64,000 nucleotides of DNA from an uncultured Gammaproteobacteria bacterium. Lineage in GTDB: Bacteria; Patescibacteriota; Microgenomatia; Levybacterales; GWA1-39-11. Shown piece by piece: positions 1,013-63,392 of the stretch. The first letter of the stretch is position 1, and every line of letters starts with the position of its first letter. The stretch is taken from assembly GCA_964409875.1 (NCBI GenBank), contig CAYPEN010000002.1:65067-129066 (forward strand), in the 5' to 3' direction. The position numbers and the translations under genes are program-made. Below the pieces are notes generated by a model, which did no database searches, was not told the origin of the DNA, and worked only from the letters and a program-made list of their open reading frames with translations.

Positions 1013-1044
1013 CGACAAAAGTCATTTTCCATTAAAGATAAATA

Positions 1045-2667: not shown

Positions 2668-2673
2668 TAGAAA

Positions 2674-18153: not shown

Positions 18154-18154
18154 T

Positions 18155-34305: not shown

Positions 34306-35112
34306 ATGAAAAAAGGCGGCAGGAATTATTTTTCGTTTGTCAAAAAGCTGCGGTTTGTTGATTACCTACTAATTATTATTTTTCTTCTGATGCTTGTGTT
34401 GTTCTATAGATTTATACGGCGCGAGCAAGTTTGGGTCAATGCAACTGCTCTATCTTACTCAAATATTTTCCAGACAAGCGTCATTCATAAAGGTGATTTT
34501 GAAACAGATTCATCAGGAAAGAAAATCGCTGTCGTTGAAGATGTGGAATCAGTTGACACCCCACCACTTAATGGCAACCAGTTCCAAAATAAAATTTTAA
34601 TTCTTCGAGTCAAAATGCTTGCAGATCAAAGCAAAAGAACAAGTCAAATCCAATATAAAAATCAACCGCTAGGTGTAAGCTCTCAGGTTCAATTTAATTT
34701 CAATTCATCTATCGTTCAAGGTTATATTTCTGAAATAGAAGGAAGCGAAACCTCAAGAAAATATGAAACTAAATTGTTAACTGTAATACTTTACAACCAA
34801 TGGCCTTGGTTTGCTGATGCAATTAAAGTTGGCTCTACTGCGACAGATTCAAATGGGGAAAAAATTGTGGAGGTTCTTTCTAAAGATAGCTCGCCAACTC
34901 AGGTAGTAAATACAACCGCCACCGGAGAAGTTATGGAACTTATCGGTTCATCAAAGGTAGACATTACGCTTCATATCAGAACAAAGCTTCAAAAAACCAA
35001 CGAAGGATATATTTTCTTAGGATACAATAACGTCCTCGTAGGCAAACCCATCTCATTTGCATTGGATAATGTACAAATAAGTAACGCCGTTGTAACTACA
35101 ATAGAAAAATAG
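34306..35112 (+). CDS. Hypothetical membrane-anchored protein
   Basis: Single N-terminal TM; stop abuts start of next gene (operon). Confidence 0.45.
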   Translation: MKKGGRNYFSFVKKLRFVDYLLIIIFLLMLVLFYRFIRREQVWVNATALSYSNIFQTSVIHKGDFETDSSGKKIAVVEDVESVDTPPLNGNQFQNKILILRVKMLADQSKRTSQIQYKNQPLGVSSQVQFNFNSSIVQGYISEIEGSETSRKYETKLLTVILYNQWPWFADAIKVGSTATDSNGEKIVEVLSKDSSPTQVVNTTATGEVMELIGSSKVDITLHIRTKLQKTNEGYIFLGYNNVLVGKPISFALDNVQISNAVVTTIEK

Positions 35113-35114
35113 CT

Positions 35115-36659
35115 ATGCTCCAAAGCTATCTATTCTCAAACATTAAGAATGCTCTATCAAAAAGCTATTTCCTAAATTTTTTGATTAATCAGGTTGATGT
35201 TAAAGAAGAATTAAAATATGAAAGTGTAATTATAGACTCGTTTTATAAGCCAATAGTACATATAAATTCACTCCTCGACAGGATTGCAAATCATACTTAT
35301 ATAAAAGCTTTATCCAGACGAATTGACCTCAAATCAGTAGTCATTTTTGTTTTTATCGTAAGCCAAGTCCTCTTCCCCGGCTATGGGACTGAAAACACCG
35401 GTACCGCTCTTCTTCCTGGAAGCCCAGTGGGTAGTGTTGCTAACAGGTCAGGTTTTGTACTAAATTTACTTGTTTTTTTTATCACCCTTTCATCTCTTGG
35501 TATAATCTTTTTGAAAGATATAACAAAAAATTCAAAAGCTTTCAGGTTATCTAAATTTGATGTTCTGATATTAATTTTTATTTTAAGTATTGCTGTCTCA
35601 TCTATTTTTAGCGTTTACCCCAATATTACATTTACCTGGTTCCTTAAAGTTCTACGAGGAATTTCAATGTATTTTATTTTCTCAAGGCTAATCATCAAAA
35701 AAGGTCATACCCTTACTATCTGCCTTGCATTTCTTTCTATAATCTATATTGAATCCTTTCTTGCCATTTTCCAATATATACATGGTGGTTTTGTCGGCCT
35801 TCCAATTGAAACAGCACAGAATGCAGCCAGCCCAAATCAACTTTATGCTTTTATTGATTTTCCGGTTTTTCGACCCACTGGAACTTTATCACAAGCAAAT
35901 ATATTAACCTTCATATTGGCTTTGGCAGCACCATTTTCTGTATTCTTCATAATCTCTGATAAGTTTATTTACAAAATTTTAGGAATTGTGGCGCTCTTAC
36001 TAAGTGTTTGCATATCTATTATCTCATTATCGAGATGGGGATTTCTAACTTTAATATTTAGTTTGTTCTTATCTTTGTCGTTTTTATTCTTTAGAAAAAT
36101 CATTAGGTCGAAAATAAATTGGGGCATAAGGATTTTATCTGTCTTAACCATCGCAATCATTACTTTATTTTCTTTCCAGTACCTATTTGTATCGAGATTT
36201 GCTTATTTTTCTTTTGTAGATTCAAGCTTCACCGCAAGAATGCAGCTCATAACTCAAGCTTTGTATGTATTTAGTCATAACGTTCTATTTGGAATAGGTG
36301 GCAAAAATTTCTCAACATACCTAATAAGTCATGACTTTACACCACTACATATTTCTTCTACTTTTCCTGCGCCTGTTCACAACCTATATTTTCTCTTGCT
36401 CTCTGAAAATGGACTTCTAACAACTATTCTTTTTATTATTTCATCTATATATCTAGTAACCACTATTTTTAATACTGTAGGAAAGGTCAAGATAATCACT
36501 AACTTACCTGCAATATTCATACTTACACTATTAGCCTCCATCGTTACTTATCTGTTTAATGGCTTATGGGAGTTAAGATTTCTCGATGAACATTTGATTA
36601 TTATATACTGGATGATGATAGGAATATGCTTTAATCGTTCTCCCCTACTCAACAACTGA
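35115..36659 (+). CDS. O-antigen ligase/polymerase family (Wzy_C) membrane protein
   Basis: Polytopic; Wzy_C-like loop (ISLSRWGFLTLIFSLFLS). Confidence 0.7.
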   Translation: MLQSYLFSNIKNALSKSYFLNFLINQVDVKEELKYESVIIDSFYKPIVHINSLLDRIANHTYIKALSRRIDLKSVVIFVFIVSQVLFPGYGTENTGTALLPGSPVGSVANRSGFVLNLLVFFITLSSLGIIFLKDITKNSKAFRLSKFDVLILIFILSIAVSSIFSVYPNITFTWFLKVLRGISMYFIFSRLIIKKGHTLTICLAFLSIIYIESFLAIFQYIHGGFVGLPIETAQNAASPNQLYAFIDFPVFRPTGTLSQANILTFILALAAPFSVFFIISDKFIYKILGIVALLLSVCISIISLSRWGFLTLIFSLFLSLSFLFFRKIIRSKINWGIRILSVLTIAIITLFSFQYLFVSRFAYFSFVDSSFTARMQLITQALYVFSHNVLFGIGGKNFSTYLISHDFTPLHISSTFPAPVHNLYFLLLSENGLLTTILFIISSIYLVTTIFNTVGKVKIITNLPAIFILTLLASIVTYLFNGLWELRFLDEHLIIIYWMMIGICFNRSPLLNN

Positions 36660-37562
36660 TGCATACATTTTCCCCATAAAATATACAACTTCTTGAAGGA
36701 AATAGAGAAAGCTTAGTTTTAAAACATTTATATAACTATTCTCTTTTGAAGCGTATAAGAAAAAGCTATCTACTCTACTTGTCCACCATAACGATTTTCT
36801 TTGAGGAAAATAACTTTTGGACCATAATTTTTGAGTCTTCTTAGTTTCAATACCCGAAAAAAATTTCTGTTTCATAAATGCCCAAATCGTTTCTCTTTCC
36901 CAGTGATAAACTTTTATAAAAGAACAAAAACCTATTATTTTATTTCTGGATAATATTTGTTTTGAAAATTCAAGATCCTCTGCATGCTTGAAGCTGGTAT
37001 TAAAAGTAAGACCAATTTTTTTTAATTCTTTAAAATTAAAAGATACATTTCTAGTATCAAGAAACAAAGAATAAAAATATTTGTTATTTTTATTTATTAA
37101 GTCTGCATGAGAGATTCCATTCTCTCCATAATAAATATTATCCCTATAAACTTGCTCTCTTATATTTGTAACGACTATGCTAATTGGCGAATTTCGAGGG
37201 CGACTCACTACCCAGCCTTGGATTGCTAGAAATTGTGGAAACTGTCTGTGTGATTTCTTAATATTTTCTGTCCACGTAGAAAAAGCCTCACAGTCATCAT
37301 CAATAAAAGCCAAAATTGAACATTTTGCGACCTTTAAAACTCTATTTCTTGCATTGGCTCGTCCCACTTGATGCTCAACTAAAAAATCAATTTCCAGTCT
37401 ATTTTTAAATGAATCTATAATTTCCTGAGTTTCATCAGTTGAATTATTGTCAACTATTAAAACATTAAAAGTATTGTCTATTTGTCGGGTTAACGACTCC
37501 AAACACCTTCTTAATTTGTATGCCCTATTTCTAGTTATTATCGCGATTGTTAAATCATTCAT
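36645..37562 (-). CDS. Glycosyltransferase family 2
   Basis: IAIITRNR...VDNNSTDET...FIDDDCEA: GT-A fold DxD signature. Confidence 0.8.
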   Translation of the reverse strand: MNDLTIAIITRNRAYKLRRCLESLTRQIDNTFNVLIVDNNSTDETQEIIDSFKNRLEIDFLVEHQVGRANARNRVLKVAKCSILAFIDDDCEAFSTWTENIKKSHRQFPQFLAIQGWVVSRPRNSPISIVVTNIREQVYRDNIYYGENGISHADLINKNNKYFYSLFLDTRNVSFNFKELKKIGLTFNTSFKHAEDLEFSKQILSRNKIIGFCSFIKVYHWERETIWAFMKQKFFSGIETKKTQKLWSKSYFPQRKSLWWTSRVDSFFLYASKENSYINVLKLSFLYFLQEVVYFMGKMYASVVE

Positions 37563-38999
37563 TTAATATCCAACTGATCGTAGATTTTCCAGCACTATAT
37601 CTCTATCTTCTTTAATTTCTGCCATATTACCCTTTAATTTCTCTTTTTTTGATTTTTTATAAAAGTCTAACCTTTTATCATTTAAACGTGAAATAATTAC
37701 ATCTAATTCTCTCTTTAAATCTTCTGCAAGACCACTCTTTTTAATTACTAGATTATCTTTCTCATCTGGATCTTTTCCCAAATCAAACATCTCATAATTA
37801 CAATTTAAACGACCTCTATTAGGCATTAATGAATAGAGATATTTTCTATTTCCACTTAAAGTTTCGATAAATTTATAATTACCTTTTCTTATTCCTCTTC
37901 TACGAGTATTTGCTGGAAAGTTAATTTTTCGATAGGTTAAATCTTCAAAAAAGGATGTTTCCCTCAATGGCTTATCTTTTATTAATAAAGGGATTAAGGA
38001 TTTGCCATCGATCTTTTTAGTATCATAACCTATCCCACAAAAATCTAATATAGTCGGGTAATTATCTATTAGTTGTACCTGAGACTTTATCTTTTTTGGA
38101 TTTAGAGTCTTGCTCATGAATATCAACGGAACTCTTAATACATCTTCATAAAGATTTTCATGATTAAACGGTATATCATGTTCATGCAGATTTTCTCCAT
38201 GATCTGCCATAAATATAATTAACGAATTATCATAACTGTTTGTCTCTTTCAGAAAACGTATAAATCTACCCATCTCTTTATCAATAAAATTAACTTCAGC
38301 ATTATACGTTGCTTCAATATTATCTTTAAGATATGACTTCAAACCTCTTGGTTTTGTATGTGGAGAATGAGCATCCCACAAATGCATATATAAAAAGAGC
38401 TTATTTTTTTTATTTTTTTTGAGTATTTTAATTGCCTCATCAATTATTAAATTTGCTGAATCGTATGGAATTTGTGGATTAGGGAAAAATGCATAATAAA
38501 AACGAATAAAAATTTCTCTTTTCAAAAATTTAACAGCTATCTTATCCAGTATTCGTAAAATTAGAGGAAAAGGAAGTTTATCAAATATGGGATATGTCTT
38601 TCCTTTACCCGTCTTAAGCCTTCCCGAATAATAATCAAACCCTCTTTTATGCCATCTGCCCAACCAGTCAATTGCGGCTGTCCTATATCCGTTTTTTTGA
38701 AAAATTTCAGATAAAAAAATAGCATTATCTAATGCTTTTTCTTCCTCTGATGATATATGAAACCCATGGTTTATCAACCCAAGTCTTAGCGGATACAAAC
38801 CACTCATTGTCGAGCTAATTGAAGGATCCGTTGCTGTAATAGTAGTATATGCATTAAGAAAAACTACACCCTCGCTACCAAACTTATCGATATTTGGTGT
38901 TGGTGATGGTTTTGCTCCATATAATCCAACGTTTTTCGCCCTTAATGTATCGGCTATTACGAGAATAACTTTATCGAATTTATACTTTTTCCTACTCAT
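37563..38999 (-). CDS. Sulfatase-like alkaline-phosphatase-superfamily enzyme
   Basis: N-terminal ILVIADTLRAKNVGLYG...PNIDKF metal-binding region typical of sulfatase/phosphotransferase fold; canonical CxPxR not evident. Confidence 0.7.
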   Translation of the reverse strand: MSRKKYKFDKVILVIADTLRAKNVGLYGAKPSPTPNIDKFGSEGVVFLNAYTTITATDPSISSTMSGLYPLRLGLINHGFHISSEEEKALDNAIFLSEIFQKNGYRTAAIDWLGRWHKRGFDYYSGRLKTGKGKTYPIFDKLPFPLILRILDKIAVKFLKREIFIRFYYAFFPNPQIPYDSANLIIDEAIKILKKNKKNKLFLYMHLWDAHSPHTKPRGLKSYLKDNIEATYNAEVNFIDKEMGRFIRFLKETNSYDNSLIIFMADHGENLHEHDIPFNHENLYEDVLRVPLIFMSKTLNPKKIKSQVQLIDNYPTILDFCGIGYDTKKIDGKSLIPLLIKDKPLRETSFFEDLTYRKINFPANTRRRGIRKGNYKFIETLSGNRKYLYSLMPNRGRLNCNYEMFDLGKDPDEKDNLVIKKSGLAEDLKRELDVIISRLNDKRLDFYKKSKKEKLKGNMAEIKEDRDIVLENLRSVGY

Positions 39000-39014: not shown

Positions 39015-39758
39015 TCATAGTTGTTTTAATAGATGGAGCGGTATTCTAACCAAAAAGATGGTATTTCCTAATAAATACCGTTTCCACATACGTCTTGGTT
39101 CTTTATAAAATCTATAAAGCCATTCGAGCCCATTTGATGTCATTATTTTAGGTGCCCTAGGGACAACACCGGCAATTATATCTATTGAGCCACCTATACC
39201 AAAAAATGCATTAGCTTCAATTTTATTTTTATATTTCTCTATCCATACTTCTTGCATTGGTGTCCCCATCGCAACAAAAAGAATTTTGGGTTTTATTTTG
39301 TTGATGTCAGCTATAATTTGCTTTGTCTCATTTTTAGAAAAATATCCATGATGGCCATAAATTTTTAGGCTAGGAAACGTAGTTTTTAAATTTCTTAGAG
39401 CTTTTTCGGATACCTCTTCTCTACCTCCCAACAAGTATATTCTCCATTTTTTCTTCTCACATGTCTTAAAAACATTGAAAATAAAATCCATTAAAGTTGT
39501 TTTTCCTTTTAAAGGATTTCCTAGTATTCTGGAAGTTAAAACAGTAGCTATCCCCTCTGGATAGACGAAAGTTGCATTATTTAGCGCTTGTCGATAAGTA
39601 GGGTCTTTATAATAAAAGTTAATTGAATGAGAATTGGCACCATATACTGTTACTTTTTTATCGAGGCTTATGAGTCCAAAAATTATTGGAACTACATTCA
39701 TGAGGGTTACATTTGCAACGTCTACACCTAAAATATTTTTTGTGTCATATCTCAACAT
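39015..39758 (-). CDS. WecB/TagA/CpsF family glycosyltransferase (GT26)
   Basis: ILFVAMGTPMQEVWI...FGIGGSIDIIAGVVPRAP...WLYRFYKEPRRMWKRY: family-specific C-terminal motifs. Confidence 0.85.
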   Translation of the reverse strand: MLRYDTKNILGVDVANVTLMNVVPIIFGLISLDKKVTVYGANSHSINFYYKDPTYRQALNNATFVYPEGIATVLTSRILGNPLKGKTTLMDFIFNVFKTCEKKKWRIYLLGGREEVSEKALRNLKTTFPSLKIYGHHGYFSKNETKQIIADINKIKPKILFVAMGTPMQEVWIEKYKNKIEANAFFGIGGSIDIIAGVVPRAPKIMTSNGLEWLYRFYKEPRRMWKRYLLGNTIFLVRIPLHLLKQL

Positions 39759-39844: not shown

Positions 39845-40849
39845 TTATTGATTGCATGGCACCAATTTGGTCTTAATTAAATACTGGAAAAGATCATCAA
39901 CTATTACCTTGTACCCATCGGCTGTTGGATGATTATCATTTAAAAAATATTTGTGGTTGTTATATATGTTCGGGATTTTATCATAAATGTAAATCGACCG
40001 TCTGGATTTGGAAAATGAGTTTAAAACTTCAAAATACTGACTTTTTAATGTTGGGAATGAAAAGACGACTAAATTTCCTTCATAATATTTATTAAGAAGA
40101 TTAAAATTGCTTTTTTGGATATTCAATATTGCATGTTCACCACCAAGCTCTTGTAAAATAGAATCAATTGACCTTCTCCAGGGTATATGCATGATAGTAT
40201 TTCCTATTATGTCTTGTTGCCTGTTTAATTCCTTTTCCTTCTTAATTTCTTTACTCAATCTTGGAACCAACATTTCATTTATTCTTAAAAAATCGTTATC
40301 AATTACAAACCATAGAACCAAATCTGGATGATATTTTAAGCCTTTAATTTTATACCTTTCTACCACATATCTTATATCGTATCCTCCAACCCCCAAATTT
40401 ATAACTTGGTAATCTTTTAGTTGGTTGTTTTTGCAAGTTGTATTTAACTGTGCCTCGAGCTGAGACGGATAATTATCGGTGGTATTTATATTTTGCCCAT
40501 AGGTAAAAGAGTCACCTATTGTTAATATTCTAAATGTTTGATTGGGCTTTTCTTCTGTATAATCACTTAATTGATTTAATCCATCCTTGTTTATATAATT
40601 CTCAATTTTCTCTCCTTGACGGTATCCTAATTGCTTTAAAAAATTTGAATCAATCGATAATTTTCCTGGTTTAGGCTCATAGAAATATTTCAGTCCATCA
40701 TTCGGATTAAAAATATAATCTTTTGATTCCAAGGGTGAGATCGTAATGCTACTCGAAGTGATTTTCCTATAAATAAATATTATTAATATAATAAATATAG
40801 ATAACAAGAAAACATAAAAATAAAATATTATTCTCCGTTTCACTTTCAA
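39845..40849 (-). CDS. SGNH/GDSL hydrolase family protein (membrane anchored)
   Basis: GDSFTYG block I, GVGGY block II, DNHPTADGY block V (DxxH). Confidence 0.65.
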   Translation of the reverse strand: MKVKRRIIFYFYVFLLSIFIILIIFIYRKITSSSITISPLESKDYIFNPNDGLKYFYEPKPGKLSIDSNFLKQLGYRQGEKIENYINKDGLNQLSDYTEEKPNQTFRILTIGDSFTYGQNINTTDNYPSQLEAQLNTTCKNNQLKDYQVINLGVGGYDIRYVVERYKIKGLKYHPDLVLWFVIDNDFLRINEMLVPRLSKEIKKEKELNRQQDIIGNTIMHIPWRRSIDSILQELGGEHAILNIQKSNFNLLNKYYEGNLVVFSFPTLKSQYFEVLNSFSKSRRSIYIYDKIPNIYNNHKYFLNDNHPTADGYKVIVDDLFQYLIKTKLVPCNQ

Positions 40850-40886: not shown

Positions 40887-42203
40887 TTAGGCAGCTTTTG
40901 GAGGAAGGGATTTTACTACATCCAAAACGGCAAAATAAGCCGGTTTTGGGTTTAAATCGTCATCGTACATGGTGGGATCCGCATTAGGTGAATAAGAGGG
41001 AGTTCTTTTATCAGTTTCGTCGGAAGAGTATTTATCACCTATGGTAAAGAATGTTATACTTTTGCAGACACCGGAGTCGAGAGCTGCTTTACAAATACTT
41101 CTATAAATTTCTGCTTGTTTAGCAAACCTCTCCTCTTGAGATCCAACCACATCTTTTAAATTAACACTCATTTCTGTGATTTCAACCGGTACACCATAAT
41201 TCCTCATCTGGGCAGCTACATTTTCACTTTTTAAAGGTTTTGCTCCATCAATCCTCATCTGCATACCAATTCTGTCAATTAGTCCCTTAGCTTTAAGCCT
41301 ATCAACTATGGATTTTGTCAATGGCGTATTTGGGCCCCCAGGGGTCTCATTACCATAGTCATCATAACTGAGTATCAATGGCGTATCCCAATCTTTTGAA
41401 GCATCCCTAGCAGCCTGAAAAGCAATATCAACATATTCGTTTCCTATCACATCAAGAAATACATCTTTTGGTGCAATCGCTGGGTGTGCATGCGCCTCAT
41501 TCACTATTGACCATCTATTGATTTTCCCCTTAAAGTGTGTAACTGTATCGGTTACATGGTTTTTTAATATATCTATTAATTCTTCTCTCGAGAAATTGCC
41601 ATTTTTAAGCCAGTCTGGATAAGTATCTACATATATAAGTGAATGTCCTTCGGGCGAAACCTTTCTCGATAGTAATACGTCAACCATTTTGTCCATATTT
41701 GAATAATCTACGGCCCCTCTTCTTTTCTCCAAATTTTTCCAGCTCAAATCATATGCCAAAGAAGCGGAATTAAACTCAAGAGTCTTAAGATCTTTAAATC
41801 TTGGCTGTGTGGCGATGTTTTCAGTGCTTATGCTTGTGCCAATCTCGATACCCGCCCTATCTGCTGCTAGCCTTAATTCTCCAAATGGAGGAATAACTTC
41901 AGGGGTTTTTGTTGCTTCTGGAGTCGCGGTTGGACTGGCGGTTGGGTCGGTATCAGGTGTAACTGTCGGATCATTATCGGGTGTTGGTGTCCCATTCCCA
42001 CCGGAAAGATGCTGTGTATCCGGATTCGGGTTTGCACCCTCTCCGTCACTCGAAATCATCGGAATGGCAATTCCTCCTACCGCGGCAAGACCTGCAGCTG
42101 CGCCGACACCGGCAGCAATTTTCAAAAATCCCCTTCTGCTAACCGGTCTTTTAGGTAATTCTCCTGGAAGCTTACCCGGAACTGGTGGATGTTCAAGAGT
42201 CAT
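40887..42203 (-). CDS. Twin-arginine-signal secreted glycoside hydrolase, clan GH-A, GH10-like
   Basis: SRRGFLKIAAGVGAAAGLAA TAT motif; PT-rich linker; WSIVNEAH (acid/base) and ITEMSV (nucleophile) blocks. Confidence 0.65.
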   Translation of the reverse strand: MTLEHPPVPGKLPGELPKRPVSRRGFLKIAAGVGAAAGLAAVGGIAIPMISSDGEGANPNPDTQHLSGGNGTPTPDNDPTVTPDTDPTASPTATPEATKTPEVIPPFGELRLAADRAGIEIGTSISTENIATQPRFKDLKTLEFNSASLAYDLSWKNLEKRRGAVDYSNMDKMVDVLLSRKVSPEGHSLIYVDTYPDWLKNGNFSREELIDILKNHVTDTVTHFKGKINRWSIVNEAHAHPAIAPKDVFLDVIGNEYVDIAFQAARDASKDWDTPLILSYDDYGNETPGGPNTPLTKSIVDRLKAKGLIDRIGMQMRIDGAKPLKSENVAAQMRNYGVPVEITEMSVNLKDVVGSQEERFAKQAEIYRSICKAALDSGVCKSITFFTIGDKYSSDETDKRTPSYSPNADPTMYDDDLNPKPAYFAVLDVVKSLPPKAA

Positions 42204-42290: not shown

Positions 42291-43268
42291 TTACGAAAGA
42301 AGAGTTATCCATACAGTCATTGCAGTAGATAATTTCCGCCAATACCCTCTTTTTTTACCTAATTCTTTCGCAATTTCTAAATAACACCCTTCAATAGTAT
42401 TGGAGGTTAAGCGTATATCTTCAACTTCTCTCCACAACCATTCATTGACCGGTATACCGGTCTTCTCTTTCTCTATATTTACATCTGTATTTGATGCCCT
42501 ACTGTGCTTTACGGATGGAGCACCGGAAGTAATTGCATAACCCAAATGGTCGCAAATTTTCTTGATAAATAATCCTGCCCAGATGTCATCAAATCGGTCA
42601 TAAGGCCATTTATTTTCGTTCTTATCCTTACCCATCAGCAAAAAATACATTGCAGGCAAAATTTCCCGTCTGAAAGCCAAATTCATAGAACACATCGGAA
42701 AGTACTTCCCATACGGCACTTTTTCTACCTTTTTGAACGGTTTTGTCCTCAACTCCGGGTATTTTTTTTGTGTAATTCCATCAAGATCGGGAATATTTGA
42801 CCAAAGACCGTGATGGACCATGGTCGGCTGCCTTTTATCCCTAAACTCATATGGATATCCCCGTGGATAGATTTGATTTTCAAGCGTGTTCCACCAATAA
42901 TCACTCTGCCATTCTTTTTTTAAGCTCGTGAGAATATCTTTCATAAAACCGTTTTTGTATTGTTTCTCAGGCAAACAATCATCATCTAACGTCAGTATGT
43001 ACGTGCTCCCTTTTTGCCAAGCTTTTATGAAACCATACGATCTTACGGCTGCCGACCTGCGAGGTATAATCCAAGAATTTTTTCCTAGCTCACTTTCTAT
43101 ATCTTCCCAACTGTAATGCTGTATCCATTGAGGTAGTTTGAAGCTTTTTTGGGGGTTATCTTCAACTACAATAATTTCAAGTCCGGAAAACTCCTTTTCC
43201 CAAGCTGTTAAGAACGAATTAATTGATTGCTCACGGATGGTAGGTACAATAATTGCAATATCTTTCAT
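42291..43268 (-). CDS. Reversibly-glycosylated-polypeptide (RGP)/UDP-arabinopyranose mutase-like protein (GT75-like)
   Basis: Blocks LTLDDDCLP, HGLWSNIPDLDG, FPMCSMNLAFRREILPAMYF, RFDDIWAGLFIKKICDHLGYAITSGAPSVKHSRASN closely parallel conserved plant RGP/UAM motifs (from memory of the family). Confidence 0.6.
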   Translation of the reverse strand: MKDIAIIVPTIREQSINSFLTAWEKEFSGLEIIVVEDNPQKSFKLPQWIQHYSWEDIESELGKNSWIIPRRSAAVRSYGFIKAWQKGSTYILTLDDDCLPEKQYKNGFMKDILTSLKKEWQSDYWWNTLENQIYPRGYPYEFRDKRQPTMVHHGLWSNIPDLDGITQKKYPELRTKPFKKVEKVPYGKYFPMCSMNLAFRREILPAMYFLLMGKDKNENKWPYDRFDDIWAGLFIKKICDHLGYAITSGAPSVKHSRASNTDVNIEKEKTGIPVNEWLWREVEDIRLTSNTIEGCYLEIAKELGKKRGYWRKLSTAMTVWITLLS

Positions 43269-43357
43269 TTAGTTTCCTATCTTACTCAATTTTTGCTTGG
43301 TTTAAAAGCTTCTTTTTGAATTTGTCAAAAGTCTGCAGACGATGGTACACTTCACAC

Positions 43358-43939
43358 ATGCCAAGACTTATTGCCATTATTCTATTCATCGTCTTACTTC
43401 CCCTTTTTCCATTAATGTTTGTGCTAATAACAATTACCTCTGATGGTCCTTTTATTTTCAAACAAAAAAGAATGGGGAAAGGAAAAAAGGTATTCACAAT
43501 TTATAAACTGCGAACGATGGTGAAAGATGCTGAAAAACTAAAATCTAAATACTTACATCTGAATGAGACTGATGGTCCAGTCTTTAAAATCCGTAACGAT
43601 CCCAGATATACAAGTATTGGGAGATTTCTTGCAAGAACAGCACTTGATGAACTGCCCCAGCTCATAAATATAATTAAGGGCGAAATGGCTTTTGTGGGGC
43701 CTCGCCCCCTTCCTGTTGAAGAAGCAAGAAATGTACCTAAAAAATATGACGCCCGTTTTTCTATCCTCCCCGGGCTTACATCAACTTGGGTTATAAAAGG
43801 GTCTCACCAGCTCAAATTTGAACAATGGATGGAACTTGATTTGAAATACGTAAAGAATAAGACTTTATGGGGTGACTTTGAAATTATTCTTAAAACTTTT
43901 TTTCTCATATTTAAATCTTTAATAAATATAAGAAGGTAG
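43358..43939 (+). CDS. Polyprenyl-phosphate sugar phosphotransferase (bacterial sugar transferase, WbaP/PglC-like small form)
   Basis: Start MPRLIAI at 43358; PVFKIRNDPRYTSIGRFLARTALDELPQLINIIKGEMAFVGPRP signature. Confidence 0.85.
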   Translation: MPRLIAIILFIVLLPLFPLMFVLITITSDGPFIFKQKRMGKGKKVFTIYKLRTMVKDAEKLKSKYLHLNETDGPVFKIRNDPRYTSIGRFLARTALDELPQLINIIKGEMAFVGPRPLPVEEARNVPKKYDARFSILPGLTSTWVIKGSHQLKFEQWMELDLKYVKNKTLWGDFEIILKTFFLIFKSLINIRR

Positions 43940-43974: not shown

Positions 43975-45153
43975 ATGATCCGGTTGCTGCCTTATTTCCT
44001 CTTTTTCCTACTAGCGCTTGAGGGACTCGGAATTCCTAACGGCCGGGAACTGGCATATGCAATTCTCGTACTGGGTTCTCCAATATTTTTTATCCACACT
44101 TTTTTTCAAAAAAAAGCATTTAAAATACCCAGAACGATAACAATACTTTTCATATTATTAATTGTTTCTGCTTTTATATCTTCATTTATGGGTTTAAAAC
44201 CGCAAAATTCTCTTCAATATTCTTTTCTGTTACTGTCAATCTTTTTCCTTTTTCTCGTTGCATATAACAATCAAAAAGAACTCACAAAACCAATCATAGT
44301 AGTAATTTTTCTTTCCTCTGCGCTCTTTACTCTTTATTCAGCTCTTCTTTCCTTTCATATTAATTTCCCCCTGCCTGCAAATGGTTACCAGTTCGTATTT
44401 TCGAAATTCGGCTCGCACAACCACCTCGGCGACTTTCTGGTTCTTCCTTCAATAATTTGCCTATATTACTTATATAACCGCAAGTATGTATTACTAGCTA
44501 TTAGCTATCAGTTATTTGCTATTATTTTCATTTTTTTCTCCTACTCCCGATCTGCATACCTTTCATTAGCATTAACAACAATTTTGCTGCATTTAATGTA
44601 TTTAAAATCTAAAAACTCTTTACACACCATACTTCTATCAAGGCTTTTAATGCTCATATTAGTTCTTTCATCAGCTTTTTTTATTGTCGCAACAACCCGC
44701 CAGGCAATAACCCAACCCTTATCAAAAGAAGTAAATGAAACGCTCGTTAAAAAAGGAGGTTTAAAGCATAAAGAATTATTGGGCAATAGGCTTGAGTATA
44801 TAAGGCAATCTCTCCTCTCAGTACAAAAAAACTCAATTTTTGGCATTGGTCCTAACAATTTTTTGTTAGTTTCCAAAACGTATGCACCCAAAAAATCTTT
44901 AATTACTGAAGCTACTCACAACATTTTTCTTGAAATACTCGTAGGACAGGGAATTTTAGGGCTTTTGCCTTTTATCACTATTAACATCCTTATATTGATA
45001 AAATCCAAAAAAAATGCCCTTTATTTCGGGTTGGTGGCATTGCTTATCAATTTCCAAACAGATTATACGTACCAAATTTATTCGTTTCTTCTTCTATTTT
45101 TTGTCCTAAGTGGCGTGATTTTAGAACAACCTAACCATAATCCTAACTCGTGA
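43975..45153 (+). CDS. O-antigen ligase-like (Wzy_C) membrane protein
   Basis: Polytopic; FSYSRSAYLSLALTTILL loop typical of Wzy_C. Confidence 0.6.
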   Translation: MIRLLPYFLFFLLALEGLGIPNGRELAYAILVLGSPIFFIHTFFQKKAFKIPRTITILFILLIVSAFISSFMGLKPQNSLQYSFLLLSIFFLFLVAYNNQKELTKPIIVVIFLSSALFTLYSALLSFHINFPLPANGYQFVFSKFGSHNHLGDFLVLPSIICLYYLYNRKYVLLAISYQLFAIIFIFFSYSRSAYLSLALTTILLHLMYLKSKNSLHTILLSRLLMLILVLSSAFFIVATTRQAITQPLSKEVNETLVKKGGLKHKELLGNRLEYIRQSLLSVQKNSIFGIGPNNFLLVSKTYAPKKSLITEATHNIFLEILVGQGILGLLPFITINILILIKSKKNALYFGLVALLINFQTDYTYQIYSFLLLFFVLSGVILEQPNHNPNS

Positions 45154-45182: not shown

Positions 45183-45470
45183 ATGATGACCAAAAATTCT
45201 CCTAAAATTAAAATTATTAAAGGTTTTGTTACTCAAAGAAATGGAAAAACCGTTACTATCTTTGATGCAGAGAAGTCAATGCTCTACACTTTTAATCCGT
45301 CGGCAACTTTTATTTTCGAAAGGTTGAAAAAGGGACTGGATGCCAATAAAATTGCTTCTTTAATGATGAAAGAATTCAACATACAAGAGAAGAAAGCAAT
45401 TGATGACATCAACGATTTCATTAATACTCTGCTCGCAAAAGGACTCGCAAAAAAGGAAAAGATTGCATAA
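45183..45470 (+). CDS. PqqD-family protein (RiPP recognition element-like peptide chaperone)
   Basis: 95 aa; SMLYTFNPSATFIFERLKKGLDANKIASLMMKEFNI...AIDDINDFINTLLAKGL matches the PqqD/RRE pattern (beta-strands + LNxTA..IW..LDG..ei.....dv..fl..L...GL). Confidence 0.75.
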   Translation: MMTKNSPKIKIIKGFVTQRNGKTVTIFDAEKSMLYTFNPSATFIFERLKKGLDANKIASLMMKEFNIQEKKAIDDINDFINTLLAKGLAKKEKIA

Positions 45471-46683
45471 TAAACCTTTTTGTCTTTCTATTAATAACCC
45501 AAAGTAATGAGTACAAAATTGTACCATTAAGAAACACAAATATTTTAATCCACAATGGGTTTGGAGAAAGAGAAAATAGCACTCTAAAAAAATTACCCTC
45601 TCCTAGAATTTCTTTTTCATCAAAAATATTTGTTTTGCCAAACTTTCTTTCTACTAAATTCGCATTGCTTATTTTTCTAAGACCCTTATAAAACGGGCTT
45701 TTAATACGCTTTCTATCGTAATACTTTACATAAAGAAACAAAGCGGAATAGATGAAATTCCATAATTTATACTCCTTAATAGTGTTTAAAATTTGATAGT
45801 AATTTATTTTTTTCTTAAAGACTTCTCTCATAAATTGATATCGATACCCACCCTCAAAATTGTGATGGTAAATATGAAGAAGCAGATAGATGATTAAATT
45901 TTCAATCTTTAAAACAGGAAATTTTACCCTTTCAATCTCAATATATTCCTTTTCATATATAAACTTTTGAGATAACTTGTCTACAAGTTGTTGGGGATAC
46001 AATTTTTCCACTTTACCAATACTGGTCATTAAAAAAACTATTTCAAGATGGATATCAAATGTGACAATCAGTCCGTTGACGTTTTTGTAGAACGAAATTT
46101 CAGCCTTATCAAGCATTGTTTTTCCCGTTAGAGAAGTCGGTGTAACCATTTTGTAGCTATTATCAAAAAGGAGTTTCTTAACCTTTTTGAACTGTTTCTT
46201 ATGAATAAGAATATCGCAATCTGCATAAATTCGACTTGGATACTTTCCTTCGTATAAAAGATGCAAAGGTAGACCTTTCAGAATAACAAAGTCAATTTTA
46301 TGCTCCATAAATAAGCCTGCAATCCTTCTTATCTCATCGAAATACAAACTGGACTGCATAAGATACAGGTCCTCAACTTTATACTTATGACTTCCTCGTT
46401 GGATAGAATCGACTAAACCGATTATCCTCTCTGGTCTTATTTTCCCATCAGATAAACGGTTATTATCCCCTTTTGTTATGAGATATTTATTCGTTTTGTA
46501 CAACACCCTATGAGTAATCAAATGGCTATTTTTTTTAAAACAAACAATATCGTTAGTTTTAATTCTGTTAAAGCTAATTTTCTTAATATGAACTGTATCT
46601 TGGTCTCGAAGGATAGGGAACATAGAATTCCCAAAAGTTTTTATCTTTCCTCTCTTTACTACCTGGTTGACTAAATCTTGCAT
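45421..46683 (-). CDS. Fusion protein: N-terminal S24/S26-type serine peptidase domain + C-terminal uncharacterised nucleotidyltransferase (NTP_transf_5-like) domain
   Basis: N-term GNSMFPIL...ITKGDNN (Ser nucleophile SM motif of LexA/signal-peptidase fold); C-term FVILKGLPLHLLYEGKYPSRIYADCDILIHK matching KG..LY....R...D.D.L nucleotidyltransferase motif. Confidence 0.55.
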   Translation of the reverse strand: MQDLVNQVVKRGKIKTFGNSMFPILRDQDTVHIKKISFNRIKTNDIVCFKKNSHLITHRVLYKTNKYLITKGDNNRLSDGKIRPERIIGLVDSIQRGSHKYKVEDLYLMQSSLYFDEIRRIAGLFMEHKIDFVILKGLPLHLLYEGKYPSRIYADCDILIHKKQFKKVKKLLFDNSYKMVTPTSLTGKTMLDKAEISFYKNVNGLIVTFDIHLEIVFLMTSIGKVEKLYPQQLVDKLSQKFIYEKEYIEIERVKFPVLKIENLIIYLLLHIYHHNFEGGYRYQFMREVFKKKINYYQILNTIKEYKLWNFIYSALFLYVKYYDRKRIKSPFYKGLRKISNANLVERKFGKTNIFDEKEILGEGNFFRVLFSLSPNPLWIKIFVFLNGTILYSLLWVINRKTKRFIMQSFPFLRVLLRAEY

Positions 46684-46703: not shown

Positions 46704-48179
46704 TTAATATTGAAGTGATTTTAATTTTGCCTTTATATCATCGTTAAAATTTGAATCATTTTCTTCGAAGCCGTTATTTTGTTGCTCTGATATTATGAAG
46801 GGTGAAGGCAAATTATAAGGTGCTAGATGTTCATATAAAACTTGCTTTAACCTACCTGCAATTCGAGGAAGCTTATCTATCAAATTATTACTCTCATATT
46901 TATCTTTCTCAACGTTATATAACTCTTCATAATTATTCTCATGTATGCAAGACCCGGGAAGCGAATAGATATATTTATATTCGCCATCGCTTACGGAAAA
47001 CTTCGAAAGGTTGTTATTTTCTGAAAACGAATATTTCCTCCGGTTAGCTGGGAATGGATTAATAAATAAACTCCGGTTAAATAGGTAAGCAAAGCTCTGC
47101 CCGTCGAAAGCAGAATTATCTTTAATACTCATCAAATCGAGCAGTGTCGGAAGAATATCAGTGTTTTGCAACATAACATTTGAGGTCATTTTATGATCAG
47201 ATAATGGATCGTAGATTATAAGCGGAATCTTTATGGCAGAATCGTATAGAACAGTTCTGTGGTCAAAATAATAATTGTGGTCAAATCCTTCTCCATGATC
47301 CCCATAGATAACAACTATTGTGTTCTTTAAGACCCCGATTTTTTTAAGAGTATTTAATATTTCTCCTGTTATCCGGTCAGCCGAAGCAACTCCACCATCG
47401 TAGAGATTTTCCATAAGCCCAATCCTTTCTTTGGGCACCGTTCTATTTTGACATTTTTGATACTCACCACGTAATCGTTCCAGGTCTTCCAAGCTTTTTC
47501 CGCTGATTTGTGAGCAATATTTAGAGTTAAACTTACAACGTAAATCATCAGGAGGATAATAAGGTGCATGTACATCCATTAAATGAATCCAGGTAAAGAA
47601 TTTAGTATTATGGTTTTTTTCCAACCAGCCTGAAGCTTGTCTTATAAAAGACTCATAGTCTGCCCTACTACTTTGCCTGAATTGTTCATTCCCACTTTTA
47701 TCGAATTGAAAATACTTGAATATGTGAAAATGAAAATCATCAATCCCCTGGTCAAGAGGCTCACCTGTGATAAATGCAGCTGTCTTATATCCGGCTGTTT
47801 TTAACTCCGTTGCCAGTGTCTTAGTATTCCAACTTATACCAGAAAAGCTATTATTCAAAATTCTGGTCTTTAAAGGATCGTAACCTGTCATAAGAGAAAT
47901 AAATGAAGGGTGTGTCATGGGAACTGTAGTTGAAACGTTAGTGAATACTTTTGCGTTATTCGAAAAATTATCTATGTTTGGGGTTGTTTTTTTTTCGTAT
48001 CCATAGACCCCCATATGATCAGGTCTTAATGTGTCAATCGATATTATGACAAGATTGAGGTCTTTTGCCCGTTTGACAATATAAATCTGTCTTCCAAATT
48101 CGAAGGCGGTATAGGATAGAATCAGAATTATTATTACAAGAAAAAGTTTTTTTGATATTAATTTTTTTAATTTCTTCAT
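46704..48179 (-). CDS. Sulfatase-like alkaline-phosphatase-superfamily enzyme (membrane anchored)
   Basis: LVIISIDTLRPDHMGVYGY...PNIDNFS...TTVPMTHPS core; start codon overlaps upstream stop (translational coupling). Confidence 0.7.
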   Translation of the reverse strand: MKKLKKLISKKLFLVIIILILSYTAFEFGRQIYIVKRAKDLNLVIISIDTLRPDHMGVYGYEKKTTPNIDNFSNNAKVFTNVSTTVPMTHPSFISLMTGYDPLKTRILNNSFSGISWNTKTLATELKTAGYKTAAFITGEPLDQGIDDFHFHIFKYFQFDKSGNEQFRQSSRADYESFIRQASGWLEKNHNTKFFTWIHLMDVHAPYYPPDDLRCKFNSKYCSQISGKSLEDLERLRGEYQKCQNRTVPKERIGLMENLYDGGVASADRITGEILNTLKKIGVLKNTIVVIYGDHGEGFDHNYYFDHRTVLYDSAIKIPLIIYDPLSDHKMTSNVMLQNTDILPTLLDLMSIKDNSAFDGQSFAYLFNRSLFINPFPANRRKYSFSENNNLSKFSVSDGEYKYIYSLPGSCIHENNYEELYNVEKDKYESNNLIDKLPRIAGRLKQVLYEHLAPYNLPSPFIISEQQNNGFEENDSNFNDDIKAKLKSLQY

Positions 48180-48652
48180 AATGACTTAATAATAAGGTAA
48201 TTAGCTGCTGCATTTTTCTCATAAAGGTTTGCAGTTTCTTTTATTGTCACATTGTCATTTTTTGTAAGTGACCCAAATGGGATATTATTCCCAAAATTGT
48301 CTATAACGCTTACTTCATGACTGTTATCGGGTGTCAGTAAAAACTGTTTCCTATTGCCATTTTTCTCGATTGTTATCCTTTTTGTTTTTGTATCCATATT
48401 TTCAGTAATATTAAAAATAGAACCTTCATAAACATTTATCAATGTAGATGTAGTCAAAGTACTTTTAGAGGAATAGAAAAAATTAAATAAGACAGACGAA
48501 CTGTAAGGAAGGTAAAATGTTTTGACCTCTCGAGGATTTTTCAACATAAAAGAATTGATATGTGGTTTTTCGTGGATAAAAATAAAAAATTCCAGAATAC
48601 AAAATGCAGTCAAAAAAAACGCAAGATAGGAGAGATTAATCTTATTTTTCAT
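48176..48652 (-). CDS. Small membrane-anchored hypothetical protein, translationally coupled between SagB-like and sulfatase-like genes
   Basis: N-terminal TM; 1-nt overlap with SagB-like stop and 4-nt overlap with sulfatase-like start. Confidence 0.4.
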   Translation of the reverse strand: MKNKINLSYLAFFLTAFCILEFFIFIHEKPHINSFMLKNPREVKTFYLPYSSSVLFNFFYSSKSTLTTSTLINVYEGSIFNITENMDTKTKRITIEKNGNRKQFLLTPDNSHEVSVIDNFGNNIPFGSLTKNDNVTIKETANLYEKNAAANYLIIKSL

Positions 48653-49428
48653 TATCCTAGAGCTACCACTTCAAGAACAGTCTCGGAAAACCCATCTATA
48701 TCAAGATAGTTATTCAGTTTATCATCTACATAGCCTCCGATAGCACAGCATGCTATATTTTGTGAGGCGGATATTAAATAAATATTCTGCAGCATGCAAC
48801 CTGCCTCGGTAAGCACATGTCTATATCCCCTATTTCCATATTTCGTAGTATTTCTGATAAAAACGCCGGTTATAATTAATAATGCGGATGCTTTATATAC
48901 CCACTCCTGGCCTTTGAAAGATTCTACCACAACATCACTATTAAACTCCCCGACAAGCTCAAGCGAGTTATTCTTGACATAATAATGATAAAGGCCTTGA
49001 GGAATTTCCGAATTCATACTGATGAAATAGACCTCCAACGGATATCTTGCTCCTGCAGAGGGATAAAATCTTGCACCTGTTCGGTTATCTTTAATACCGG
49101 CAGAAAAATAAAGCAGATTGCTTATCCGTTCGGTTGTTAGTACTTGACTAAATTCCCTTCGGGATTCTCTTTTTTCCAAAAATTCAGAAAGAACTTTCTG
49201 TTCAAGTACGGGCTTTGGAAGTATAGTTTCGGGCAAACGAGCATAGCCTTTATAGAAAATCTTGATCCATTCAGTTGGCCATTCGCTTCTATTGATTTCT
49301 TTCTTATATTTTTTTATCTTTGTCAGGTTATGGAATTTTTCGAAAGGCTGCATCGGTTCTTTCAAAAGTTCATTCACATCGATATCGTCTTTTTTTAATA
49401 CCTTTGAGTCTGGACGTGTACTCACCAT
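48652..49428 (-). CDS. SagB-type (McbC-like) FMN-dependent dehydrogenase of azoline-forming RiPP pathways
   Basis: Nitroreductase-fold motifs RESRREF, YPSAGARYP, RGYRHVLTEAGCMLQNIYL, ACCAIGGY. Confidence 0.85.
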   Translation of the reverse strand: MVSTRPDSKVLKKDDIDVNELLKEPMQPFEKFHNLTKIKKYKKEINRSEWPTEWIKIFYKGYARLPETILPKPVLEQKVLSEFLEKRESRREFSQVLTTERISNLLYFSAGIKDNRTGARFYPSAGARYPLEVYFISMNSEIPQGLYHYYVKNNSLELVGEFNSDVVVESFKGQEWVYKASALLIITGVFIRNTTKYGNRGYRHVLTEAGCMLQNIYLISASQNIACCAIGGYVDDKLNNYLDIDGFSETVLEVVALG

Positions 49429-49466: not shown

Positions 49467-50261
49467 ATGGATGAATTTTATGTGTCTATTGCGGGTTTTT
49501 TAATCAGGTTGCTTTTTAAGAAAGATGATCGGAAAAATAACCAACAGGAAATTATTATCTACAAACTCCAAACTGAGATTCTCCATACTCTAGCAGGGTT
49601 TGTGTCTGTTGTTACTAGAAATCCTGACTTTACAATTACCATCTCAGAGACCAAGGATGTTGAACGCATCAAGAGGAAGTCGGATCAACATAATTTTATC
49701 TACCAGTATCACAGAATTGATGACAGAAGAGCTTGTGGAAATTACCAAATGAGCATCTGGCATTTTCAATCGATGCTTGCAGACATTTTATATTTTCTGC
49801 TTTCTGAAAACGATGGATTTGGCATACACTGTTCCTCGGTCTATTCTGGAAATAAAGCATATCTATTCTTGGGAAATTCTGGTGCCGGAAAATCTACTAT
49901 AGCAAATCTTCTGAATGGTTATTTCCAGCACTTTACGGACGACATCGCATTTGTTAGAAAGATTGATAAGAAGTATTATCTCTATCAATCACCCTTTCTT
50001 GAGAAGGAAAACAATATTAAATTTCCCTATGGATATGAGATCTCACAAGTCTTCTTCCTGCATAAAAGCAACACGACATGCATCAAAAGGTTAAAGCAAA
50101 ACAAGATTGTAACAAGATTGACAAGACAAGTGCTATCAGACGGTAACTTACCCAAAAATATCCGTAAGACAGTGGAACAATTCGCTTCGCAGGATGTTTT
50201 CAGTGAACTTTACTTTGAAAAAGACCCACAAAAATTGAATGATGTATTGAGGAGGATTTAG
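49467..50261 (+). CDS. HPr-kinase C-terminal-domain-like P-loop protein (HprK-related kinase)
   Basis: GIHCSSVYSGNKAYLFLGNSGAGKSTIANLLNGYFQHFTDD parallels HprK hGVlv...G.GvLi.G.SG.GKSE.AleL...G..liaDD. Confidence 0.65.
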   Translation: MDEFYVSIAGFLIRLLFKKDDRKNNQQEIIIYKLQTEILHTLAGFVSVVTRNPDFTITISETKDVERIKRKSDQHNFIYQYHRIDDRRACGNYQMSIWHFQSMLADILYFLLSENDGFGIHCSSVYSGNKAYLFLGNSGAGKSTIANLLNGYFQHFTDDIAFVRKIDKKYYLYQSPFLEKENNIKFPYGYEISQVFFLHKSNTTCIKRLKQNKIVTRLTRQVLSDGNLPKNIRKTVEQFASQDVFSELYFEKDPQKLNDVLRRI

Positions 50262-59857: not shown

Positions 59858-63125
<3,268 letters not shown>

Positions 63126-63392
63126 ACAGATTCTTGAAAATCATGTGCGGTGTTCTCTTAACTTTAAAATTAAAATTGCTGTGTATCCGCCCTTAGGCGG
63201 AATACGGCCTAGTTATTTACTGACTTTAACGTCGCTGATGTGACGCTAAAGTGCTTGTATCCCAATTGTTAAAGAACATATTTCTACTGTATTCGAGGAA
63301 GGCCAGCTGTAGCGCTGCGCCTTTCTCCAACACAGTAGGTTGTCGAATTCAGTGGGTCAGCTAAGCTGACCATCACCCAGCTAAGCTGGGTG

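Follow-up and report, generated by a model that had tools for sequence, protein, structure and literature searches.

The gene considered here lies on the minus strand at positions 42291-43268 of a 64,000-nucleotide stretch of contig CAYPEN010000002.1 (assembly GCA_964409875.1), hereafter called the window, and encodes a homologue of the nucleoside diphosphate (NDP)-sugar pyranose-furanose mutases of glycosyltransferase (GT) family 75, the reversibly glycosylated polypeptide (RGP) family. It starts with ATG, 5 nt downstream of a Shine-Dalgarno-like GGAAA element, and its product is a soluble protein of 325 amino acids without any transmembrane (TM) segment. By fold and conserved catalytic residues the protein belongs to GT75; it is placed in a bacterial clade of its own, and the neighbourhood of its gene is conserved in relatives. 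We estimate at about 60% the probability that this RGP protein would act as a Mn2+-dependent, flavin-independent NDP-sugar mutase, most likely on a UDP-sugar of the L-arabino/D-galacto configuration. We infer the nucleotide and the sugar, our best guess being the conversion of UDP-L-arabinopyranose (hereafter UDP-L-Arap) to UDP-L-arabinofuranose (hereafter UDP-L-Araf), possibly together with that of UDP-D-galactopyranose (UDP-D-Galp) to UDP-D-galactofuranose (UDP-D-Galf).

Family membership, fold and catalytic residues

The open reading frame (ORF) matches the Pfam model PF03214 (RGP) with an E-value of 2.3e-53 and a score of 182 bits, for a curated cut-off of 23.8 bits, over profile positions 5-336 of 342; a scan against NCBIfam matched no model. 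Among PDB sequences the top match, over the full length, is the rice UDP-arabinopyranose mutase (UAM) homologue OsUAM2 (8cid, E 2e-30), and the entries for the bacterial mutase MtdL match residues 67-268 at E 3e-21. A preliminary description of this DNA had singled out the 325-amino-acid ORF for its blocks of plant RGP/UAM motifs and had proposed to check it by profile and BLAST searches against GT75 and by looking for the DxD and arginine residues. All four blocks, LTLDDDC, HHGLWSNIPDLDGITQ, FPMCSMNLAFRREILPAMYFLLMG and RFDDIWAGLFIKKICDHLGYAITSGAPSVKHSRASN, are indeed found when the protein is aligned with plant and algal UAMs (class-1 sequences taken from the protein database), the best matches fall inside the RGP family, and D95-D97 and Arg136 are in place. 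An AlphaFold (AF2) model computed with 25 homologues as input has a mean predicted local distance difference test (pLDDT) of 93.8 and a predicted TM-score (pTM) of 0.92. In a Foldseek search with this model, 8cid is matched at E 1e-23 with a query TM-score (TMq) of 0.78, and MtdL at E 4e-21 with a TMq of 0.75; for other GT-A folds the TMq is 0.42 at most. That the ORF encodes a genuine GT75/RGP-family protein with its catalytic set intact is confirmed by these results.

The structural study of MtdL defines the functional residues of GT75, including those whose mutation abolishes the activity of MtdL or of UAMs (PMC9937993). We mapped them through a multiple alignment in which 82 bacterial homologues were combined with full-length MtdL (P0241) and with UAMs of plants and algae. 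D109-D111 of MtdL correspond to D95-D97 of the window protein (the DDD motif, followed by Cys98), and R159, the nucleophilic and autoglycosylated arginine (R158 in OsUAM1), to R136, which lies within PRGYPY. The other correspondences are D195 with D161, R257, the beta-phosphate arginine, with R225, D260, the proposed general base, with D228, H287, a Mn ligand, with H255, and R289 with R257. The mapped residues are near-invariant across 79-82 bacterial homologues, and Arg136 is invariant in 82/82. It is known that both OsUAM1 and MtdL need the DDD motif, which coordinates Mn2+ (PMC9937993). The inactive class-2 protein of 8cid differs at three sites, with DDN instead of DDD, a Thr at the position of MtdL R257 and an Arg at that of MtdL H287; the window protein has none of these substitutions and keeps DDD, Arg225 and His255. 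Since the catalytic residues are all conserved and the class-2 changes are absent, we conclude from the alignment that the protein should be a catalytically competent GT75 enzyme, its mutase activity itself being a prediction.

If the enzyme works like MtdL and the plant UAMs, its reaction could proceed as follows. Asp97 of the DDD motif (95-97) and His255 would bind Mn2+, which would hold the diphosphate, while Arg225 would contact the beta-phosphate and the sugar. Arg136, deprotonated or activated by Asp228, would attack C1, which would give a short-lived adduct of the arginine and the sugar; the ring could then open and reclose via O4, and the NDP-furanose would be released.

Position of the protein within GT75

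In BLASTP comparisons the protein has 36-39% identity with class-1 UAMs from plants and algae over the full length (190-199 bits), and 25-30% with proteins of the MtdL clade, mostly over about 200-260 residues (88-106 bits). A neighbour-joining tree of 100 sequences (Poisson distances, 100 bootstraps, midpoint rooting) contains an MtdL clade (100/100), a clade of plants and algae (100/100) and a large bacterial clade that includes the window protein (98/100) and is sister to the plants under this rooting. The MtdL clade takes in second paralogues from two loci of relatives, L013 and L061. The earlier view of the protein as a plant-type RGP needs to be modified in this respect: it is nearer to the plant UAMs than to the MtdL type, as the scores above indicate, but it is not a plant-type orthologue, being placed in a separate bacterial clade outside that of the plant and algal UAMs. 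It is thus a member of a known family, in an uncharacterised clade that is distinct from both characterised groups.

At the sites that discriminate MtdL from the plant enzymes, the window protein has plant-type residues: T13, N112, Q229 and H292 of the MtdL signature are replaced by Pro9, Cys98, Met195 and Ser259. With the plant and algal class-1 UAMs of CAZy GT75 (OsUAM1, AtRGP1-3) it shares the fold, the DDD motif, the autoglycosylated Arg, the Mn-binding His and an HS(K/R)ASN loop, and both are soluble and cytoplasmic. It differs from them by having Ser72-Ala73 in place of Asp-Ser, D-N in place of DGD at the first DxD and DLD in place of DYD at the third; moreover, it is about 35 residues shorter and, unlike the plant enzymes, is encoded within a bacterial cassette for a polyprenol-linked glycan. 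A 2019 review gives DLD for every bacterial GT75 entry that CAZy contained at the time (PMC6861824), so that sequences of the DLD type were apparently already catalogued, though uncharacterised. Our literature search on the window-type clade, or on GT75 in the candidate phyla radiation (CPR) or Chloroflexi, found nothing beyond PMC9937993 and PMC6861824.

MtdL (Marinactinospora, A201A pathway) and Hyg20 (hygromycin A pathway), which convert GDP-L-galactopyranose and GDP-L-fucopyranose, are described as the sole characterised bacterial members of GT75 (PMC9937993). The window protein has in common with them the family, the fold, the Arg/Asp/His/DDD set, a bacterial origin and a Ser equivalent to Ser86 of MtdL. 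Both characterised enzymes come from antibiotic pathways, and genes of the MtdL type occur in antibiotic clusters or beside a GDP-mannose 3,5-epimerase gene, whereas the window gene and its clade sit in cassettes for surface polymers of the cell envelope.

Which sugar?

We favour a UDP-sugar of the L-arabino/D-galacto type because the clade is next to the plant UAMs and because the plant active-site signature is present. If the protein is an active mutase, UDP-L-Ara would be our tentative first choice; UDP-D-Gal is a lesser possibility, some other substrate appears somewhat doubtful, and GDP-L-Gal or GDP-L-Fuc rather unlikely. Genes adjoining the homologues give some indications (here and below, counts over 79 loci refer to those returned out of at least 132 GTDB relatives). 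In L013, from a metagenome-assembled genome (MAG) of WOR-3 (positions 291-4196), a GDP-mannose 3,5-epimerase gene (313 bits to 2c59) is followed by the MtdL-type paralogue, and the window-type paralogue stands about 1 kb further downstream, which suggests that the two types do different jobs. L061 likewise carries both an MtdL-type and a window-type GT75 gene. In L016, 16 bp separate the end of a gene for a GalE-type UDP-hexose 4-epimerase (188 bits to 4zrm) from the RGP gene downstream of it. In L010 and L083 the order is a short-chain dehydrogenase/reductase (SDR) gene of the UDP-xylose synthase (UXS)/ArnA-like kind, a GalE orthologue (336 bits), a methyltransferase gene, the RGP gene and a GT2 gene. 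This order fits a route from UDP-GlcA through UDP-Xyl and UDP-L-Arap to UDP-L-Araf, the UXS assignment being weak.

A number of points weigh against this preference for a UDP-sugar, and for arabinose in particular. In the base pocket, Ser72 equals Ser86 of MtdL where plants have Asp; across the bacterial clade this site holds T, N, S or V and never Asp. Asn38 also resembles Asn42 of MtdL and not the plant Asp, in a locally gapped part of the alignment. The SDR neighbours form a heterogeneous cluster, with four GDP-mannose 3,5-epimerase orthologues, GalE-like and UXS/ArnA-like proteins and others, and no precursor pathway is common to all the SDR neighbours of the RGP loci; L055, L065 and L074 have a gene for a GDP-mannose 3,5-epimerase orthologue at 2-7 kb from the window-type one. 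For ten SDR neighbours, all NCBIfam matches were far below cut-off and non-discriminating, and the comparison was made by PDB sequence searches instead. In L039 the adjacent SDR is closest to 6zl6, which was deposited as an 'epimerase domain-containing protein' and which we take to be a UDP-glucuronic acid 4-epimerase. In the window itself, Pfam annotation of the 64 kb reveals no nucleotide-sugar genes, i.e. none for UDP-glucose dehydrogenase (UGDH), UXS, UDP-xylose 4-epimerase (UXE), arabinokinase with USP, or the supply of UDP-Xyl, UDP-Ara or UDP-Gal. The spacer between the RGP gene and the next gene of its array has a promoter-like site, so that their co-transcription is not assured; no terminator-like site was found there. 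Lastly, the plant GT75 proteins OsUAM1 and AtRGP2 catalyse in addition the interconversion of UDP-D-Galp with UDP-D-Galf (PMC9937993); as plant UAMs handle UDP-Galp, a GalE gene nearby does not tell Ara and Gal apart.

This last point is part of the case for an unlikely, though by no means negligible, alternative, in which the protein would be a flavin-independent UDP-D-galactopyranose mutase that supplies UDP-D-Galf in place of Glf, with no L-arabinose involved; Galf is a frequent sugar of bacterial surfaces. Beta-L-Arap and alpha-D-Galp have the same ring stereochemistry, GalE-type 4-epimerases adjoin members of the clade in L016 and L010, and UDP-Gal requires GalE only, which would suit the reduced metabolism of CPR bacteria; no Glf domain is found in the Pfam-annotated contexts L080-L085. 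The GT2 neighbours resemble GT2 galactofuranosyltransferases in class only, with a very weak match to GlfT1 (E 6e-4). However, no residue-level sign of a C6-binding pocket was found, a pentose route is in better agreement with L010, where a UXS/ArnA-like SDR precedes the epimerase, and plant UAMs are said to convert Galp inefficiently (PMC6861824). An improbable alternative is that of a GDP-L-Galp or GDP-L-Fucp mutase like MtdL and Hyg20, making L-Galf or L-Fucf for the polymer. It would agree with the sugars used by the only characterised bacterial members of the family, with Ser72 and the absence from the whole clade of the Asp that, in plants, prevents guanine from binding (the S86D mutation of MtdL abolishes binding of GDP; PMC9937993), and with the GDP-mannose 3,5-epimerase orthologues of L055, L065 and L074 (313 bits to 2c59). 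But the MtdL clade is separated at 100/100 bootstraps, similarity to MtdL is lower and partial, and the four signature residues are replaced by plant ones, among them Q229, whose change to Ala inactivates MtdL (PMC9937993); moreover, in L013 it is the MtdL-type paralogue, not the window-type one, that follows the epimerase.

Two further readings concern the nature of the gene and not its sugar. The protein might be no mutase in vivo, but a self-glycosylating primer or scaffold, as are the inactive class-2 RGPs, or an ordinary GT-A transferase. Arginine autoglycosylation is a property of the family as well (PMC9937993), and the best PDB sequence match is a class-2 protein, OsUAM2. This rank of 8cid was obtained among PDB hits that include no class-1 UAM chain, whereas the best overall sequence matches are class-1 enzymes, and the DDD, Arg225 and His255 that class-2 proteins have lost are kept, which makes this reading very improbable. 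Nor do we retain the idea that the gene is plant-derived, through contamination of the assembly or a recent plant-to-bacterium transfer. It would explain the motif resemblance to plant UAMs, but identity to these is merely 36-39%, the contig carries a bacterial 23S rRNA, 5S rRNA and tRNA-Ala unit along with bacterial neighbours, and the identical protein is found on four independent metagenome contigs, one of them the Logan assembly of run SRR11845634. Furthermore, the bacterial clade is deep and diverse, with the plant and algal sequences in a clade of their own outside it (98-100% bootstrap). A plant origin is in our opinion effectively refuted.

Gene cassette and proposed pathway

The RGP gene comes first in an array of genes on one strand, 0-87 bp apart, and is followed there by genes for a family 10 glycoside hydrolase (GH10), a GDSL esterase, WecG, a sulfatase-like protein and a GT2. 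The GH10 gene (40887-42203, minus strand; PF00331 E 5.5e-56), 87 bp downstream of RGP, encodes an exported enzyme with a twin-arginine translocation (TAT) signal, also matched as TAT_signal, and a Thr/Pro-rich linker; the catalytic motifs VNE and ITE are visible in its translation. The GDSL/SGNH esterase-like protein (39845-40849, minus strand; PF13472/PF00657) has an N-terminal hydrophobic, TM-like segment at residues 7-25. Next come the WecG/TagA/CpsF-family glycosyltransferase gene (39015-39758, minus strand; PF03808 E 7e-59, NCBIfam TIGR00696 above cut-off), that of a sulfatase-fold protein of the alkaline-phosphatase superfamily (37563-38999, minus strand; PF00884 E 1e-42) and that of a soluble GT2 glycosyltransferase without TM segment (36645-37562, minus strand; PF00535 E 2e-21), a candidate furanosyltransferase. 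On the other side, and divergent from RGP, there is a gene for a small polyprenyl-phosphate phosphoglycosyl transferase (PGT) of the Bac_transf family (43253-43939, plus strand; PF02397 E 1.7e-56), with one TM hairpin region and matches below cut-offs to NCBIfam models of the EPS_sugtrans/WbaP type. Its true start is probably near 43358, since the gene calls on identical DNA are shorter. It precedes a gene for a Wzy_C (O-antigen polymerase/ligase-like) membrane protein of 392 amino acids (43975-45153, plus strand; PF04932 E 1.5e-18) with about nine hydrophobic segments. A second Wzy_C membrane protein, of 514 amino acids (35115-36659, plus strand; PF04932 E 5.8e-15), is encoded convergently with the array, next to its conserved partner, a DUF4330 protein (34306-35112, plus strand; PF14221 E 3e-6).

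With a PGT, WecG, a GT2, two Wzy_C proteins and one GT-C of the PMT_2 type, the window holds a set of genes for a surface glycan. Of the initial proposal that the organism makes arabinofuranosylated surface glycans, the GT75 protein and the glycan locus have stood, whereas the sugar is not established. In the pathway that we envisage, the PGT would prime polyprenyl phosphate, WecG and the soluble GT2 would extend the lipid-linked unit in the cytoplasm, the GT2 being the presumed furanosyltransferase that uses the mutase product, and the Wzy_C proteins would polymerise or ligate the unit outside the membrane. The exported GH10 and GDSL proteins might, more speculatively, trim or deacylate the polymer. 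In other exopolysaccharide operons, hydrolases encoded by the operon process its own polymer. The conserved GH10 and GDSL genes may thus hint, and this is speculative, at a beta-1,4-xylan-like, acylated backbone. We also considered that the GT2 proteins adjoining RGP might be membrane-anchored polyprenyl-phosphate sugar synthases like GtrB or DPM1, an idea that we do not favour because 18/28 of these GT2s, as well as the one in the window, are without hydrophobic segment.

Furanose in surface glycans requires a dedicated ring-contracting enzyme, a role that the flavoenzyme Glf usually has in bacteria. Glf (UDP-galactopyranose mutase, UGM), which depends on FAD, performs an analogous ring contraction and supplies furanosyl donors to GT2s in surface-glycan loci. 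It is unrelated to GT75 in fold and cofactor: the nucleophile of UGM is reduced FAD, whereas GT75 relies on Mn2+ and an arginine.

Conservation of the context in relatives

Clustering of the ORFs of the 79 related loci gave an overview of the neighbourhood. A GT2 gene is present in 48/79 and is adjacent to RGP on the same strand in 26/79. GT4 genes occur in 26/79, SDR (epimerase/dehydratase-like) genes in 25/79, an ABC exporter pair in 13-17, WecG in 12/79, Wzy in 11/79 and PGT in 10/79; the cluster of the 392-amino-acid Wzy_C is shared with 11 loci, and the DUF4330 cluster is found in 14. This set of neighbours (GT2, GT4, SDR, ABC, WecG, Wzy, PGT) is a signature of loci for polyprenol-linked surface glycans.

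In the closest cassettes the RGP/GH10/WecG/sulfatase/GT2/Wzy core is kept: in L081 (75% identity) and in L085, L001 and L002 (about 60%), the GH10 gene being beside RGP in all four; L003 (about 60%) keeps the core without GH10. The GDSL gene is conserved in L001, L002 and L081, and the 514-amino-acid Wzy_C in L001-L003, L081 and L085, while orthologues of the window GT2, at 41% identity, are found in L001 and L002. The sulfatase orthologue of L085 is a Sulfatase+PAPS_reduct fusion of 668 amino acids, and those of L001-L003 are similarly long (676-736 amino acids). Four sulfur-related genes of the window (37563-38999, 46704-48179, 55633-56301 and 56303-57949) account for two sulfatase-fold proteins, a protein similar to reductases of 3'-phosphoadenosine 5'-phosphosulfate (PAPS) and a bifunctional ATP-sulfurylase/adenosine 5'-phosphosulfate (APS) kinase. 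Together with the fusion they may indicate that the glycan is sulfated or carries some other modification related to sulfur.

A second group of relatives, at 58-60% identity, comprises L082, L084 and the contig of P0020, and has a different gene arrangement. There, RGP is followed, directly or past a soluble GT2 gene, by genes for a membrane protein of about 1160 amino acids, a small protein with 3-4 TM segments and a large multi-TM protein. The small protein, of 93-113 amino acids, is possibly flippase-like; L084 also has a carbamoyltransferase gene.

The large membrane protein and AftD

The preliminary description had associated with the RGP protein an 'AftD-like large GT-C' protein (18155-21565). 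The corresponding ORF, at 18122-21565 on the plus strand, about 21 kb from the RGP gene, encodes a membrane protein of 1147 amino acids with a GT-C-like layout: its hydropathy profile indicates about nine N-terminal TM segments, then about 600 soluble, extracytoplasmic residues and, at the C-terminus, one more TM segment. Mycobacterial AftD, the GT-C arabinofuranosyltransferase of PF11847, is of a similar size class and is built likewise, with a multi-TM region at the N-terminus, a large extracytoplasmic part, and a TM segment at the C-terminus. Direct tests of the label failed: the ORF has no match in Pfam at E<=1 or in NCBIfam at E<=0.01, and none among PDB sequences, whether searched as a single sequence (phmmer) or as a two-sequence profile. 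The single-sequence AlphaFold model (pLDDT 34.7) is unusable. What connects the ORF to AftD is a chain of similarities. It matches the 1161-amino-acid protein of L082 (BLASTP E 5e-17, with a collinear C-terminal match), which is a full-length homologue (E 7e-136) of the 1160-amino-acid protein of L084. On its own, the L082 protein scores E 0.05 against PF11847; the best match to PF11847 (GT-C_AftD) among the three aligned proteins, at E 1.1e-7, is attributed to that of L084, and the precomputed Pfam table for the L084 contig lists PF11847 on the 1160-amino-acid protein and on one of 667 amino acids. The label is thus plausible through transitive homology only. AftD-like genes stand within about 3 kb downstream of RGP in three close relatives (the regions being 10993-16808 in L082, and 1643-3646 and 13896-20613 in L084), which lends some comparative support to the initial idea of arabinofuranosylated glycans, but they are near RGP in 4 of about 85 contexts only. 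Whether the ORF of the window acts in the same pathway as RGP is uncertain. It should also be noted that AftD uses as donor decaprenyl-phospho-D-arabinofuranose, made via DprE1/E2, and not an NDP-L-Araf.

Just upstream of this ORF, and overlapping it, the segment 14927-18153 encodes a GT4 of 507 amino acids and a 7-TM protein of 566 amino acids without family match. These genes probably form a second glycan-assembly unit.

Taken together, these elements would allow the following picture. Some CPR/Patescibacteria may build an L-Araf surface polymer by a plant-like UDP-Araf route, perhaps on a xylan-like backbone, perhaps sulfated, with AftD-like GT-Cs perhaps adding furanose outside the membrane, and the bacterial clade could be the evolutionary source of the UDP-arabinopyranose mutase of Viridiplantae. 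The xylan-like backbone is considered in view of the exported GH10 and the GDSL esterase that relatives keep beside the mutase, and the sulfation because of the sulfatase-PAPS_reduct fusion and the nearby genes for PAPS synthesis. As a whole we judge this picture quite unlikely. The finding is incremental and is not a new kind of system. To our knowledge, the cell surfaces of CPR bacteria are almost unknown. The window-type clade is large, bacterial and next to the plant UAMs, and it occurs in conserved cassettes of uncultured phyla, CPR included. If bacteria do make UDP-L-Araf in the manner of plants, this would provide a new enzyme of NDP-furanose synthesis and would bear on the origin of the plant enzyme.

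Distribution and host DNA

A profile search of 1.84 billion representatives clustered at 50% identity revealed 2109 clusters at E<=1e-3, of which 572 at E<=1e-30, and a word-indexed search of metagenomes gave 2413 matching clusters at 90% identity; all of the best 120 homologues listed (120/120) carry PF03214. Two peptide patterns alone recovered a relative in at least 132 of 185,579 GTDB species representatives. The 79 returned RGP loci are all from MAGs, which belong to Patescibacteria, Dormibacterota, Chloroflexota, Acidobacteriota, Planctomycetota, Melioribacteraceae, Gemmatimonadota, Solirubrobacterales and others, plus one Thermoplasmata MAG. The family is thus rare per genome, phylogenetically broad and seen here from uncultured organisms only. 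Such homologs had been said to be uncommon in bacteria, and this holds for the size of the family, small among 1.84 billion clusters, but not for its spread over at least 132 species and many phyla.

The closest GTDB representatives, at 60-61% identity, are in a Candidatus Daviesbacteria MAG (L003) and in two MAGs titled 'uncultured Gammaproteobacteria' (L001, CAYVKP010000005.1, and L002, CAZYWG010000004.1). The latter two share the CPR-like cassette and the closest RGPs with the window and with the Daviesbacteria MAG, and their label may be wrong. The genome to which the window belongs is itself absent from the GTDB species representatives; its host is a bacterium, probably an ultra-small one of the CPR, of a Microgenomates-like kind. 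GC content of the window is mostly 30-45%, with about 50% in one 2-kb stretch. The 23S rRNA match (59859-63126) covers 3268 nt for a model of 2925 nt, which makes an insertion, or several, probable. The gene at 9235-9606, 50 kb from the 23S rRNA, encodes a '23S rRNA intervening sequence protein' (PF05635).

Other genes of the window

Directly beside the glycan cassette, the segment 45183-51801 resembles a cluster for a ribosomally synthesised and post-translationally modified peptide (RiPP) of the azoline type. It comprises a small PqqD-like ORF (about 45183-45470) and genes for NTP_transf_5 (45421-46683), nitroreductase (48652-49428), ScmC-like (49467-50261) and YcaO (50533-51801) proteins. 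At the same position in relatives, the set is full in L081, and NTP_transf_5, PqqD-like and ScmC-like genes are present in L085 and L001/L002. Domain types with leucine-rich repeats (LRR) or RCC1 repeats are more familiar from eukaryotes. Both are represented at the left end of the window (302-6837), which encodes an LRR protein of 236 amino acids, the PMT_2-type GT-C of 540 amino acids and an RCC1-repeat protein of 1387 amino acids.

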